The notes below the pieces were generated by a model. That model searched no databases. It was not told the origin of the DNA and worked only from the letters and a program-made list of their open reading frames with translations. The position numbers and the translations under genes are program-made. This document shows positions 1,933 to 9,671 of a stretch of 12,448 nt of DNA, one piece after another (within the stretch, counting starts at the first letter, position 1; the number at the start of each line of letters is the position of its first letter). Source of the DNA: a virus (taxonomy: Duplodnaviria; Heunggongvirae; Uroviricota; Caudoviricetes); IMG/VR virus record IMGVR_UViG_2648501165_000019; one strand, given 5' to 3'.

Positions 1933-2024
1933 GTTTGTGAATATATTCCGGCCTTCTGATTAACAGTCCTCAGATGTGAGGGATGTAGCCAGCGCAATTT
2001 TGCGTTATCGGGAATATCAGCAAG

Positions 2025-2306
2025 TTACCGCCGCAGCCGTTCCGGCTTCTTCCAGTGGTACGTTATTTTTTCTTTCTCCCGATACAGTTCAACGCGGCGA
2101 TTGTAGGCCAGCATTTCAAGAACGCGGTTCCGTATGTTGCGCATATCAACGCCATTAAGTTCTATACCATCACGGCGCATCACTTCCGCTACAACACGCA
2201 CATAATTTTCAGCGGTCACGCTGTCCGGCTGTGTGGCCTGTTCGTCATGCTGCTGGCTGATTCCGGCGACGCGGCGGATTAATCCCAGTAGTTCGGCTTC
2301 TGTCAT
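2025..2306 (-). CDS. Hypothetical protein (93 aa), last gene of the packaging module
   Basis: ATG at 2306-2304 preceded by a GGGGG Shine-Dalgarno-like run 4 nt upstream; same orientation as terS. No family recognised. Confidence 0.5.
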   Translation of the reverse strand: MTEAELLGLIRRVAGISQQHDEQATQPDSVTAENYVRVVAEVMRRDGIELNGVDMRNIRNRVLEMLAYNRRVELYREKEKITYHWKKPERLRR

Positions 2307-2340
2307 TGTGCCCCCATCGCTCTGATAGTCTGGTGTCGTC

Positions 2341-2545
2341 GGGTCCTTCCTGGAATTATGGCCCGTTACGGGGCGGCGACCTCGCGGTTTTTATCTGTTT
2401 ATGAGAATTTTCCGGCAAAAGTCAGATCCGATCTTCTTCTCTGTAACAGACTGTTTAACAATGAAAATATTAAAAAAAAGAAAGGATCTGACACGAGGCA
2501 TTTTAGCCAGAAAATGCCATTATCAGATCCTTTCTCATTTTTGTT
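2341..2545 (+). other. cos site copy A: complete lambda-type cos with cosQ-like, cosN and cosB-like R3/R2/R1 elements
   Basis: 2341-2370 GGGTCCTTCCTGGAATTATGGCCCGTTACG resembles the lambda right end (GGGTCCTTTCCGGTGATCCGACAGGTTACG). 2371-2382 GGGCGGCGACCT is identical to the lambda 12-nt cohesive end. 2383-2420 CGCGGTTTTTATCTGTTTATGAGAATTTTCCGG parallels lambda CGCGGGTTTTCGCTATTTATGAAAATTTTCCGG. R-like repeats with a GATCC core in direct/inverted/direct order: 2423-2443, 2477-2498, 2524-2543. Inverted repeat GGCATTTTAGCCAGAAAATGCC at 2497-2518. Confidence 0.8.
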
Positions 2546-2562
2546 CAATAATTGCGCGTCTG

Positions 2563-3105
2563 TTACTCGCCTTTCTTCTGTAGCAACTTTTCCGGTACGT
2601 TTCCGGTTGTTTCTTTCAAGTAATCAGCCAGTATCTGTGGGAGGTTGTCGGCAACTCTGGCACTGGCATTACAGGCTTTAACCACTTCCCTTTTAAGCCT
2701 GTCCAGCATGGCGGGGGTAATCTGTGGGAAGCTCCTTTGCATAGTAAGCGGGAGGCTGTCCATGATTGATGAAATCTGACTCGCCAGCTTTGAAAGCGCG
2801 TACAGGCAAAACTCAGTATCAATCACGTCACCGCGATCGCGATCGTTTTTAAGTTCCTGCGCCTCTGCCTGTGCTGTCAGTAATCTGATCCTGACTCGTA
2901 AAAGTTCATCATCGTCAATCTCGCCTTTGTCGTTTATAAGCTGGCTAATTGCATTGTTAACCCTATTTTCTATCACGCTGGCAACATCATAAAACGCCTC
3001 ACGGCCTTTACGCTCAACGGGAGTTACTCCCCACTTGTCGAACGCTGTCGCACTTACACGGCAGCTTTTCGCCATGTTTTTTTTGTTCATCAGATGAGAT
3101 TTCAT
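2563..3105 (-). CDS. terS: Terminase small subunit, lambda Nu1-like (180 aa)
   Basis: Length and sequence parallel lambda Nu1 as recalled, for example RLLTAQAEAQELKNDRDRGDVIDTEFCLYALSKLASQISSIMDSLPLTMQRSFP versus lambda RLTRAQADAQELKNARDSAEVVETAFCTFVLSRIAGEIASILDGLPLSVQRRFP. Lies immediately downstream of cos copy B in the lambda cos-Nu1 arrangement. Start could be Met1 (3105) or Met6 (3090). Confidence 0.85.
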   Translation of the reverse strand: MKSHLMNKKNMAKSCRVSATAFDKWGVTPVERKGREAFYDVASVIENRVNNAISQLINDKGEIDDDELLRVRIRLLTAQAEAQELKNDRDRGDVIDTEFCLYALSKLASQISSIMDSLPLTMQRSFPQITPAMLDRLKREVVKACNASARVADNLPQILADYLKETTGNVPEKLLQKKGE

Positions 3106-3257
3106 TAATACACCAACTTAATTACTGCTTCAGGTTGGTGTATTGCTTGCATCTTTCCCTTTTCATTCATAAAGATAGATCAAACAACAAAACCACCACC
3201 CTGAAAAGGCTCATAAATAGCGAAAATCCGCGAGGTCGCCGCCCCGTAACGGGCCAT
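3106..3257 (-). other. cos site copy B (inverted relative to copy A): cosN plus a short, diverged cosB directly upstream of terS
   Basis: 3228-3257 is the exact reverse complement of 2358-2387 (30/30, ATGGCCCGTTACGGGGCGGCGACCTCGCGG); cosN on the minus strand is 3244-3233. Minus-strand continuation ATTTTCGCTATTTATGAG matches the lambda post-cosN sequence. Further toward terS the lambda-like R elements are replaced by GGTGGTGG (3200-3193), CACCAACC (3140-3133) and GTTGGTG (3117-3111). The position where cosQ would lie is occupied by N10 (3258-3267) and a terminator. Confidence 0.75.
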
Positions 3258-3267
3258 NNNNNNNNNN

Positions 3268-3290
3268 TAAAAAAGCCGGATTTCTCCGGC
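3268..3290 (-). terminator. Rho-independent terminator, copy 1 of a conserved hairpin family
   Basis: Minus strand reads GCCGGAGAAATCCGGC followed by TTTTTT: 6-bp GC-rich stem, GAAA loop, U-tract. Sits 7 nt after the stop of the 137-aa gene. Confidence 0.7.
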
Positions 3291-3296
3291 CTTGTC

Positions 3297-3710
3297 TCAG
3301 ATGGTTTTCAGTATGCGATCGATGTCGCCGTCATCGCCCTGGTTTCTGCCATCGTATGCCATGCCAGCTGATACGGCTTGCGGGCTGTGCATGTCCATAA
3401 AGTTTTCAAAGGCTGCGGTAAGTTCCGGCGCAACCTTCGGACGTTCCTGCTCTATGGTCATGCTAAGGATGCTTTTAGCCGTACCAACATCGATACAAGG
3501 CACGTTTGCCATTGCACGCAACAGCGGCTGATAGTCTTTATGCTCATGAAGCGCCATAATCGCATCAGCGCGCGGCTTGTCCTGCTCTTCCAGTTTGTTT
3601 AGTTGATATACGGCCTCATAGGTTGATAAACCTCTGTCAGCCATTGCCCGCGCTTCGACTTTAAATTTACTCGCCAGCGGTAGCGTCATGATGCTTTCAT
3701 TCGTTGCCAT
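3297..3710 (-). CDS. Hypothetical protein (137 aa) downstream of the decoration gene
   Basis: ATG at 3710-3708 with GGGGG Shine-Dalgarno-like run 4 nt upstream; acidic C-terminal region. No family recognised. Confidence 0.6.
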   Translation of the reverse strand: MATNESIMTLPLASKFKVEARAMADRGLSTYEAVYQLNKLEEQDKPRADAIMALHEHKDYQPLLRAMANVPCIDVGTAKSILSMTIEQERPKVAPELTAAFENFMDMHSPQAVSAGMAYDGRNQGDDGDIDRILKTI

Positions 3711-6885: not shown

Positions 6886-7078
6886 CCTCTCACTTTTTCG
6901 CCTCACTTTTTCAAGCGTCTCACTTCGTCGCAGTTGGGATTTTCGGTTTTTCTATGTGTGTGTTTCATAAGTATTTTTTTACCCCTCACTTTTGAGGATG
7001 TATACAGGTCGAAAAGTGAGGGAGAGCGGGCTAATTTTGGCCCTCTTTCTATCCCCCTCGCTTTTGCTCCTCACTTTT
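6886..7078 (-). repeat. Iteron array, putative replication origin, immediately 3' of the helicase gene
   Basis: Seven copies of a CCTCACTTTT-type decamer: 6889-6897, 6901-6910, 6918-6927, 6984-6993, 7056-7065, 7069-7078, plus one inverted copy at 7011-7024. AT-rich spacer around 6961-6981. Confidence 0.6.
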
Positions 7079-8477
7079 ATAGCGGCGCTACATCATCCCC
7101 ATCGATACGAATAACCCCATCTTTTTCCAGCTTGTACAGCCAGCGCCGGAAGTTTTTCATTTCATACCCCAGCTTTTTCATGTCATCACGTAACAGCGGG
7201 ATCGTGCACTTGTCGCCGTTCTGTGTGCGTGAACGGATGCCCCCCCATAGCGCGGTATGGTTTTTCGTCTTGTTCCCTGCCTCCTCGATGCGCTCCAGTT
7301 CAACAGGAGGGCGCGGATCATCCACCACCACCAGCGACGTGATTAATTCACCGTCAGCGTCGGTAAAAAGCTCCACCACGCGTAAGTCATATGCGGCTTC
7401 TTTGAGTTCCTCCGCGTCCTTCATTTTGGTGCATGAGATAACCAGCGCTTCGCTTCCTGCGTCCTCCCTGCGTATCCGGTATTCAGCATCCAGCGAAGCA
7501 CGAAATGCACTGGAACCGCGCGCGCCTTTCGTCTCATCCTTGCCGGAATGGTGAACCACCAGCACCGTGGCCCCTGTGCGTCGTTTCAGTTCGTCACAAC
7601 CACGGATAAACGCCCCCATATCACGGGAATCATTTTCATCATTCCCACCAAAGCAACGCGCCAGCGTATCCAGAATAATCATGCGTACAGGTTTACCCGT
7701 TTCCCGCTCCACCTGACGGGCAGCGATAACCATTTCATCAACATCAAGCGGGGCAGCCGGAAAGATGGGGCGGTTTACCAGATACAGATTTTTCACCTGC
7801 TCATCGTGCACAACCTCCCAGGCTTTTACACGACGCGGAACACCTATACCGCCTTCACCAACCACATAGAGAACCGCACCATGTGCAACCCTGCGGCCTC
7901 CCCACTGGCGACCAGTGGCAACATGGCACGCCCACGATCCGGCAAGGAATGATTTATAGGACCCGCTAGCCCCGTATATGCTGCATAGCGATACCGCCGG
8001 AATAATCCCCTTAACCACGTAATCCAGTTGCGTGTCGTATCCGGTAGATCCAACGCTCATCGGTAGCGTGGTTTTTCGCTGGTGGTTTTTTTCTTCCGCC
8101 GGCTCTTTCCCGCGCACCCGTTCCAGGTATTCGCGCCAGTTCTCCCGCATATGGCTGTGCATCCCTTCGGGGTAATAATTCGCATCAGTTACACCCGCCG
8201 CCGCCAGCTTGTGCGCAATGGCATTAATATTTGATGGCCTGATGTGGCCTGCCTTGTACAGCCGGACACAATAGCGCCCCTCGTCGATGATTCTCAGGTC
8301 TGCCAGTTCATCCAGTTGATCATCAGCCAGCACAACGGGAGGCACATTATCGCCAGCCAGTCGCCCGTCCTGTTCCTGCCACTGTTTCGCATGTGCCCAG
8401 GCATCACTACCCGCAAAAATAATGACTTCGGTCATCTTGTCGTAAGGCTGTTTTTTTAAGTTCGGTGCGCTTTTCAT
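7077..8477 (-). CDS. Replication protein with RecA-like (RepA/DnaB-type) ATPase domain, putative helicase/initiator (466 aa)
   Basis: Walker A GASGSYKS (aa 169-176), Walker B-like MIILDTLARCFGGNDEND, and VLVVHHSGK motif typical of RepA-like replicative ATPases. N-terminal region of about 160 aa unassigned. AGGGG ribosome-binding site 6 nt upstream; ATGA overlap with the upstream gene. Confidence 0.7.
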   Translation of the reverse strand: MKSAPNLKKQPYDKMTEVIIFAGSDAWAHAKQWQEQDGRLAGDNVPPVVLADDQLDELADLRIIDEGRYCVRLYKAGHIRPSNINAIAHKLAAAGVTDANYYPEGMHSHMRENWREYLERVRGKEPAEEKNHQRKTTLPMSVGSTGYDTQLDYVVKGIIPAVSLCSIYGASGSYKSFLAGSWACHVATGRQWGGRRVAHGAVLYVVGEGGIGVPRRVKAWEVVHDEQVKNLYLVNRPIFPAAPLDVDEMVIAARQVERETGKPVRMIILDTLARCFGGNDENDSRDMGAFIRGCDELKRRTGATVLVVHHSGKDETKGARGSSAFRASLDAEYRIRREDAGSEALVISCTKMKDAEELKEAAYDLRVVELFTDADGELITSLVVVDDPRPPVELERIEEAGNKTKNHTALWGGIRSRTQNGDKCTIPLLRDDMKKLGYEMKNFRRWLYKLEKDGVIRIDGDDVAPL

Positions 8478-9469: not shown

Positions 9470-9671
9470 AAAGCATCCCCTGAATATTCGTGTTAATCAT
9501 TCCGGCACGTTTTGTGATTTCCTGTAATGATTCCCTTGTGGCGACAATTGCTTCATCTGGTAAGTGGTAATTACACACCACGCGACCTTTATCCACATTG
9601 ACCAGTAGCTGCCCTGTGAATTTCTCACGAAACTGAATGCGGTTAAGGTCAGTAAGTGACAGATTAATCAT
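9459..9671 (-). CDS. Hypothetical protein (70 aa from ATG at 9671)
   Basis: Strong ribosome-binding site AGGAGGT 5 nt upstream of the internal ATG; the longer frame to 9713 lacks one. Overlaps the upstream gene by 8 nt. Confidence 0.5.
   Translation of the reverse strand: MINLSLTDLNRIQFREKFTGQLLVNVDKGRVVCNYHLPDEAIVATRESLQEITKRAGMINTNIQGMLYAQ

Follow-up and report, generated by a model that had tools for sequence, protein, structure and literature searches.

We report two dissimilar packaging sites in a viral DNA of 12,448 nucleotides (IMG/VR record IMGVR_UViG_2648501165_000019; hereafter the window means this whole stretch), which belongs, on comparison of its genes and their order, to a cos-type phage satellite of the EcCICFT073 family of phage-inducible chromosomal islands (PICIs). 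The gene of a small terminase subunit (TerS) is flanked in this satellite by two cohesive-end sites (cos) that have cosQ and cosN in common, and the cosB regions of which fall, as judged from their repeats, into different specificity classes. The distal site, copy A, is a complete phage-type cos of the Gifsy-1/SerU-LTIIb class. The proximal site, copy B, has a cosB of the N15 class and stands beside the gene for an N15-type TerS. We consider it rather probable that these sites form a satellite packaging module in which the proximal cos would be read by the TerS of the satellite and the distal cos by a helper phage of the Gifsy-1 class. A preliminary description of the window had reported two cos copies with different families of cosB repeats. 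This report was confirmed by locating the repeats, by motif statistics and by the assignment of each family to a class.

The two cos copies are convergent and inverted, lie 860 bp apart and flank terS, which is on the minus strand. The cohesive-end sequence GGGCGGCGACCT was found at 2371-2382 (+) in copy A and at 3233-3244 (-) in copy B, where bp 1 corresponds to position 3244. In the window the copies form an inverted repeat of 58 nt (2358-2415 / 3200-3257) with 88% complementarity. The runs of N at 1637-1649 and 3258-3267 are masks, which stand for 50 bp and 18 bp of real sequence in the Escherichia coli chromosome NZ_CP157165 (L001). The 10 N at 3258-3267 replace 18 bases, AATTCCAGGAAGGACCCG, among which is the cosQ heptamer of copy B (L001 reads ...GGCCATAATTCCAGGAAGGACCCGTAAAAAA). 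The window therefore understates the length of the inverted repeat. Without the mask, its perfect arm measures 48 bp, with 31 bp upstream of cosN and 17 bp counted from the first base of cosN, and contains cosQ, cosN and five further bases. The preliminary description stated that copy B keeps only the first 17 bp after cosN. Perfect identity does end at this point, but a weaker similarity (26/37) continues to bp 49. The cosB regions that follow have no motif in common; the boxes of copies A and B agree at 3/16 positions for R3, 6/16 for R2 and 4/16 for R1. From these alignments, the specificity classes of the two cosB regions are different, and cosQ and cosN are common to both sites.

Copy A was numbered from the first base of cosN (2371) and overlaid without gaps on phage 434, in the record of which R3, I1, R2 and R1 are annotated. 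The cosN of copy A (2371-2382, +; bp 1-12) is identical to that of lambda and 434 (12/12), and the cosQ heptamer GGGTCCT (2341-2347, +) is at the lambda-like position relative to cosN. In the register of the 434 sites, R3 of copy A is AGTCAGATCCGATCTT (2420-2435, +; bp 50-65; 10/16 identical), R2 is an inverted element with the plus-strand sequence AAGAAAGGATCTGACA (2478-2493, -; bp 108-123; 13/16), and R1 is TATCAGATCCTTTCTC (2521-2536, +; bp 151-166; 12/16). At the position of lambda I1 there is a site like those of integration host factor (IHF), AAACAGTCTGTTA (2444-2456, -; bp 74-86), with one mismatch to WATCARNNNNTTR and 10/13 identity to I1 of 434. The spacers after R3 match those of 434 at about 25-60%, most of them at about 30%. 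The motif CAGATCCKWTCT occurs in copy A at 2423-2434 (+), 2479-2490 (-) and 2524-2535 (+); three matches compare with 0.14 expected, and three were reached in none of 200 shuffles. The ungapped register and this statistic bear out the earlier proposal of three R-like elements with a GATCC core in direct, inverted and direct order at lambda-like spacing. The short inverted repeat that had been noticed between R2 and R1 is also real, GGCATTTT-AGCCAG-AAAATGCC at 2497-2518 (+). In other members of the same cosB family, the interval between R2 and R1 likewise has inverted repeats, which are rich in A/T and differ in sequence.

The R cores of copy A are all CAGATCC, as against CGTTTCC, and the same three bases differ in each box. 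Such a substitution in all boxes is, by its pattern, a concerted change of specificity. R boxes of the CAGATCC family were found in Gifsy-1, in the E. coli phage SerU-LTIIb and in the E. coli lambdoid prophages L010 and L011, in each case preceding the Nu1 gene. The prophage of NZ_CP018991 with CAGATCC boxes has the cosN of lambda, and its genes are in the order of lysis genes, cos, terS, terL and portal. In an alignment of seven sites of this type, comprising three satellite sites (O157, L009 and L012) and four phage sites with three types of cosN, the R boxes are invariant, and cosN and the spacers vary. A comparison with the cosB regions of lambdoid phages, which had been proposed earlier as a check, thus assigned copy A to the Gifsy-1/SerU-LTIIb class. 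About 270 further E. coli genomes have related sites at 60-90% identity; of three that were inspected, two are in lambdoid prophages and one is a remnant of a satellite site. No Nu1 gene or remnant of one follows copy A in the satellite, where the stop codon of the antisense terS lies within about 26 bp of R1. Taken together, cosQ, cosN, R3, the IHF-like site, R2 and R1 make copy A, as far as its sequence can tell, a complete phage-type cos of this class.

In copy B, the preliminary description had placed repeats of the GGTGGTG type in direct, inverted and direct order in front of terS. This order is correct. GGTGGTG or GTTGGTG occurs at 3194-3200 (-), 3134-3140 (+) and 3111-3117 (-), and this trio, which lies inside 90 bp, makes up three of the nine GKTGGTG matches in the window. 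A reading of the copy B cosB as a type restricted to satellites, suggested by a search of phage DNA, was dropped after a protein search revealed the relationship to N15. The R3 of phage N15 is GAGGTTGTTGTT at bp 48-59 and has been defined by block mutations; scrambling of bp 54-59 costs about 100-fold (PMC4669245; PMC9026076). A scan of copy B with the N15 core GGTTGTTGTT gave direct matches at bp 45-55 (GGTGGTGGTTT), bp 53-63 (TTTTGTTGTTT) and bp 127-137 and an inverted match at bp 102-112. GGTGGTGGTTT and TTTTGTTGTTT are each two mismatches from the core, with an offset from N15 of 3 bp. Six matches were counted in the first 150 bp of copy B, compared with 0.54 in shuffled sequences, and six were reached in none of 500 shuffles. 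The N15-type R3 of copy B, GGTGGTGGTTTTGTTGTTT (3182-3200, -; bp 45-63), resembles R3 of N15, and 12 of its 18 block columns are invariant across relatives. The inverted element CAATACACCAACC (3133-3145, -; bp 102-112), two mismatches from the N15 R3 core, is a candidate R2-like partner of R3.

The conservation of these repeats was examined in nine satellites with a TerS of this type, at 48-97% identity in TerS and including E. coli satellites, Enterobacter- and Citrobacter-type proteins and one metagenomic element. Two blocks are conserved amid variable surroundings, GGTGGTGGTKTTGTTGTT and the inverted CAATACACCMAC, the latter kept in this form in eight of the nine; R3 and its partner are retained in relatives with as little as 57% TerS identity. 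The conserved determinant of copy B is the longer block GGTGGTGGTKTTGTTGTT and not GGTGGTGG alone. The third repeat, GTTGGTGTATT (3107-3117, -), is R1-like in the O157/Nissle lineage, where it forms a perfect 11-bp inverted repeat with 3134-3144. It is perfect only in this lineage and is degenerate or absent in other relatives. It stands 2 bp ahead of the start codon of terS, and CTGGTGAGGGAATATG / GGTGAGGGAATATG occupy the same place in N15. It shares bases with the likely ribosome-binding region of terS and, from its position, is probably a part of that region rather than a conserved R1. The three-repeat model of the preliminary description, which was to fall if the repeats were unconserved in homologous elements, holds for R3, found in the nine relatives, and for its inverted partner, but not for the third repeat. 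A search for an rR2 within the terS gene gave no convincing match. On comparison with L033, L018, L028 and L029, a length polymorphism of the (GGT)n type was seen near 3185-3205, just upstream of the N15-like R3; the O157 sequence is 6 bp shorter than those of Nissle, L018 and L029 and 3 bp shorter than that of L028, so that the R3 core is displaced with respect to cosN. Judged by its core, its position and its conservation, the cosB of copy B is of the N15 class.

The gene adjoining copy B, terS (2563-3105, -), encodes a small terminase subunit of 180 aa that belongs to the Nu1 family (Pfam Phage_Nu1, PF07471; 3e-23, 82.6 bits against a cut-off of 30). In hhalign comparisons with phage Nu1 proteins it scored 100% and was colinear over residues 6-180. 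A translated search of phage genomes with the N-terminal 76 residues found gp1 of phage N15, which is 44% identical to TerS over residues 5-166 without large gaps. The recognition segment is SATAFDKWGV in TerS and SVQAFDKWGV in N15, with AFDKWGV common to both. The profile of the satellite TerS family also matched the DNA-binding domain of lambda TerS (6hn7_B, E=0.0045). In its C-terminal part, TerS is like the lambda/PhiR5/PhiR12 class (LPxxLxxY) and unlike the 21 class. An identity of the 180-aa protein as Rpp was considered and rejected, since phmmer gave no match in the PDB, where RppC and the Rpp complex are reached only by way of the lambda TerS chain, and hhalign against RppA gave a probability of 0.05%. 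An AlphaFold2 model of TerS from an alignment of 19 sequences had a mean pLDDT of 54, with the N-terminal 43 residues below 50, and was too poor for use. No second DNA match to the 3' half of terS, which could have revealed a resident helper, was found in O157. Of a full capsid and packaging set, with a large terminase subunit (TerL), portal, protease and connectors, only genes for the E-like major capsid protein, the gpD-like protein and TerS were annotated or detected in the element.

The satellite L009 (NZ_CP091024) is informative as to the relation between TerS and its adjacent site. Its TerS has an N-terminal domain of the 21 type joined to a C-terminal half like that of the window TerS, and its proximal cosB is also of the 21 type. 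Its distal site has a CAGATCC cosB behind a SerU-type cosN. The proximal cosB thus follows the adjacent DNA-binding domain, and the distal cosB varies independently. Further upstream, in the region 3000-5000 of L009, there is a third cos-like sequence (GGGTCCTCC...).

By position and orientation, copy A is the homologue of the published cos2 of EcCICFT073, and copy B that of cos1. In the published supplementary sequences, cos.1 is just upstream of rppA and cos.2 is inverted and downstream, and these match the proximal and distal sites, respectively. The cosB of CFT073 cos2 was described in 2018 as completely divergent from phage cosB (PMC6092414). Over 179 bp that extend from cosN to the end of the last R-like box, cos2 is in our comparison 93% identical to the cos of PhiR12_1 to PhiR12_5. 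The similarity ends just before Nu1, and the N-terminal domain of PhiR12 Nu1 is of another type. L030 and Nissle 1917 have 21-type boxes at the distal site, and the distal site of L028, L029 and L018, with another cosN and ATGGGACA boxes, corresponds to cos regions of mEp460-like phages. As read from the alignments, every distal site examined is a complete cos of the phage type, and at least four specificity classes are represented.

The clearest example of this variation is given by Nissle 1917. Its satellite has 95-100% identity to the O157 satellite in terS and copy B and 83-98% in orf93, and its TerS is 99.6% identical to the window TerS at the DNA level over the 3' half. Identity drops to about 50% exactly in 2424-2543, the part of copy A bounded by R3 and R1, and the Nissle boxes there are CATGTCG, of the 21 type. 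On this alignment, the distal cosB has been exchanged between near-identical satellites as a cassette of about 120 bp; recombination with phage cos regions is the presumed route. Among the 60 genomes listed with the Nissle-type distal cosB, 53 have a second matching place. In Nissle, ATCC 25922, IHE3034 and UM146, a prophage has a cos and a Nu1 start 100% identical to those of CFT073 phage 4, a 21-class phage that has been published as the inducer of EcCICFT073 (Fillol-Salom et al.), and the second places may be the cos of this prophage. These facts suggest that a 21-type distal cosB resides together with a matching prophage, though, many of the genomes being clonal, the count does not amount to a statistical test.

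In phages like lambda, the R boxes are bound by TerS, which brings TerL into position for nicking cosN, and packaging runs from cosN through cosB (PMC4669245, PMC9026076). In the satellite, TerS would bind copy B, and its C-terminal part would recruit the large terminase of the helper to cut cosN of copy B. Packaging of satellite concatemers by this route would proceed in the direction of terS, orf93, att and int. The unmodified terminase of a Gifsy-1-class helper would read copy A directly and would package the satellite in the opposite direction. Either route would yield whole units from concatemers. The terminases of lambda and 21 do not package N15-cos DNA (PMC4669245); an N15-type copy B would therefore be private to the satellite. 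The preliminary description had offered, as inference, that one site is read by a helper protein of the Nu1 type and the other by the satellite TerS. The assignment of each cosB to a known class, the position of copy B beside the gene of an N15-type TerS and, in EcCICFT073, the published reading of cos1 through RppA and the likeness of cos2 to a phage cos support this proposal by comparison only.

A more general proposal, which we make tentatively and hold to be possible though somewhat doubtful, is that of packaging with two keys. In addition to a private cos for their own TerS or Rpp, such satellites would keep an inverted cos, the cosB cassette of which would be exchanged repeatedly to match the local lambdoid phages. 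If this is true, the satellite could be packaged by a hijacked large terminase of the helper or by the unmodified terminase of the helper, and its range of helpers would be wider. The presence of cos2 in EcCICFT073 would then be accounted for. Lateral transduction from the inverted cos pair was also considered and was set aside, since cos phages are stated not to perform it and unterminated packaging gives dead particles.

Several observations weigh against a division of the two sites between TerS and helper. No IHF-like site was found in copy B at one mismatch or fewer. The interval between cosN and the copy B R3 core varies by 3-9 bp among relatives and in comparison with N15, and this spacing is critical in lambda. 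An N15-type terminase also packages lambda DNA (PMC4669245). TerS may therefore act beyond copy B, and a strict division of one protein to one site is not assured. As for copy A, no second CAGATCC-type cosB was found in O157-type genomes, which have the satellite copy only, so that no resident cognate helper is visible. Enterobacter- and Citrobacter-type relatives have the proximal cos only and lack a distal one. In EcCICFT073, cos1 and cos2 both act as cos sites on a plasmid in transduction assays, and cos1 is required for transfer by lambda and phi80; cos2 is dispensable, and its deletion raised lambda-mediated transfer (PMC6092414). The helpers used in that deletion work were not cognate for cos2.

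The last three of these points would agree with a reading of copy A as a scar of recombination with a phage cos, neutral or mildly costly and of no use in spread, its phage-like appearance reflecting recent origin. The 93% identity of CFT073 cos2 to a phage cos, which points to recent acquisition, would fit as well. We nevertheless regard a scar as unlikely. All four elements of copy A, R3, I1, R2 and R1, are intact and keep the register, and no R box varies among copies that elsewhere differ by 15-50%, those of the satellites O157, L009 and L012 among them. Moreover, four specificity classes are each present as complete sites in different satellites, the boundaries of the swap match R3 to R1, and the activity of CFT073 cos2 on a plasmid shows that such a site can function.

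Another conceivable reading is that the satellite TerS, with a promiscuous DNA-binding domain of the N15 type, serves both sites, so that the same enzyme of satellite TerS and helper TerL starts at each. This seems very improbable to us, because the two cosB regions have no common motif, and because the distal cosB was swapped without a change of TerS, which speaks for a distal site matched to another factor. Furthermore, N15 terminase does not package 21-type DNA (PMC4669245; PMC9026076), yet the near-identical TerS of Nissle adjoins a distal cosB of the 21 type. Copy A might instead be a decoy for interference, which would draw helper terminase onto satellite DNA, or have it cut there, and so lower the packaging of the helper. 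PICIs generally interfere with helper packaging, a helper-type cosB on replicating satellite DNA would compete for Nu1, and with the convergent orientation, cuts at both sites would release only a fragment of 860 bp. Packaging from copy A would, however, still give full-length satellite DNA, and decoy and transfer are inseparable by sequence; we give the decoy little credence. The division of labour between a TerS-read copy B and a helper-read copy A is for these reasons the reading that we prefer.

The window agrees at 100% identity with E. coli chromosomes, NZ_CP157165 for example, and about 550 complete E. coli genomes cover at least 80% of the stretch 2000-3258. In the annotation of NZ_CP157165, the junction of phoQ and roxA holds an element of about 11 kb that contains the window. 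Its genes encode a tyrosine integrase, an Icd-like protein, a PerC-family protein, a RepA-family helicase, SSB, a major capsid protein like lambda E, a gpD-like decoration protein, the product of an open reading frame (ORF) of 137 aa (orf137), a 'terminase small subunit' and the product of an ORF of 93 aa (orf93). The left end of the satellite is marked by a direct attachment (att) repeat of 21 bp, ACTACACCATTAACTACACCG (1548-1568, +), the partner of which is past the window, downstream of int. In L001 this repeat is found at positions 9511 and 20483, and both cos sites are thus within the element. The traits of the EcCICFT073 family are present, namely the integrase at one end, the att repeats, the replication module, the gene order of the packaging region and the integration site. 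On these traits the element is a PICI of that family, and it is probably of the O157 O-island-51 type.

The small gene orf93 (2025-2306, -) adjoins the distal cos and is conserved, with homologues at the same place in CFT073, L018/L028 and Nissle; no Pfam match was found for its product. It always stands beside the distal cos, and its start region has ATGACC hexanucleotide repeats, two copies in L018, five in L019 and three in L028. A scan of contigs with orf93 led to a single locus, a Shigella element, where a TerL-like gene immediately precedes the homologue. The gene upstream of the proximal cos is orf137 (3297-3710, -), which is conserved, with a homologue at the same position in CFT073. 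In several relatives (L014, L018 and L022-L026) the gene at this place is not orf137; its replacements are an AlpA-family protein of 127 aa and, in the case of L014, a protease of the ClpP/S49 type with an NfeD-like domain fused to it. A terminator-like hairpin with a T run, GGCCGGAGAAATCCGGCTTTTTTA (3268-3291, -), was read by eye in the interval that separates orf137 from copy B; the terminator scan did not list it. A scan of the packaging module for promoters and terminators gave counts not above those of shuffled sequences. The sole promoter-like matches of the module are in copy A, between R2 and the stop codon of terS; one of them (TTGAAC, 18 nt, GATAAT; 2519-2548, -) lies between the terS stop and R1 of copy A and is directed toward orf93. 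The replication gene at 7077-8477 (-) encodes a RepA-family helicase of 466 aa. EcCICFT073 has a primase-family protein of 584 aa at that place, so that the replication module is also unlike between the two satellites.

The dual cos layout (2018), a satellite-specific reading of the proximal site and the N15 and Gifsy-1 types of cosB have already been published. In the searchable literature, we found no report that assigns both cosB regions of such a TerS-type satellite to the N15 and Gifsy-1 classes, that describes the distal site, CFT073 cos2 included, as a bona fide phage cos, or that describes a swap of the distal cosB cassette. Nor did we find there a cos-type PICI with a full N15-class TerS in place of Rpp. 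The role of cos2 in E. coli PICIs was left open by the papers that described it, and with the classes of the distal site in hand, the question of why there are two cos sites becomes answerable by plasmid transduction assays such as those made with EcCICFT073. The answer bears on which phages mobilise these islands, which carry virulence regulators, in O157:H7, in Nissle 1917 and in uropathogenic strains. The present element also adds a cos-type satellite that would supply its own N15-class TerS instead of Rpp.

Among known systems, phage N15 is the closest to copy B and its gene. TerS is 44% identical to N15 gp1 and colinear with it, with a near-identical AFDKWGV segment, and copy B has an R3 with a GGTTGTTGTT-like core at a similar distance from cosN. 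The satellite differs from N15 in that it has no TerL gene, in the extra conserved GGTGGTGG ahead of the core, in having yielded no IHF-like site and no clear rR2 inside the gene, and at two positions of the recognition segment. A possible inverted R2-like element together with a direct R1-like element would recall the tripartite cosB of the Monarch prophage group (PMC4669245, PMC9026076), which was compared by description only. Gifsy-1 and its relatives resemble copy A in R3, I1, R2 and R1, which stand in the lambda register with CAGATCC boxes. They differ in that copy A has no Nu1 gene behind it and abuts the 3' end of an antisense satellite terS, and the cosN of copy A is that of lambda and not that of Gifsy-1.

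Compared with capsid-forming PICIs (cf-PICIs), the element differs in that no TerL, portal or protease is annotated in it. In Staphylococcus aureus pathogenicity islands (SaPIs) of the pac type that encode TerS, redirection of helper packaging by a satellite small terminase is established (PMC6092414, PMC6739421), and the likeness to the present satellite would lie in this principle; packaging is of the cos type here and headful there. In EcCICFT073, the cosB of cos1 is the target of the heterocomplex of RppA and TerS (PMC6739421). There, an RppA of 144 aa pairs with the TerS of the helper, whereas the present element has a full-length TerS of the Nu1/N15 type with a C-terminal region. The proximal cosB is a ACCACCACC element there and N15-like here, and the distal cosB is of the PhiR12 class there and of the Gifsy-1 class here. 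In Rpp-type satellites, CACCACCACCAC at bp 54-65 of cos1 (L002, 7600-7625) is the reverse complement of GGTGGTGG of the window (3193-3200), a correspondence that may be due to chance or to a shared element. In spite of these differences, the two satellites occupy the same chromosomal site and have the same flanking genes (capsid E-like, gpD-like, orf137 and orf93). In both, the gene of a winged-helix DNA-binding protein lies between two inverted cos sites, which are lambda-like in cosQ and cosN and dissimilar in cosB.

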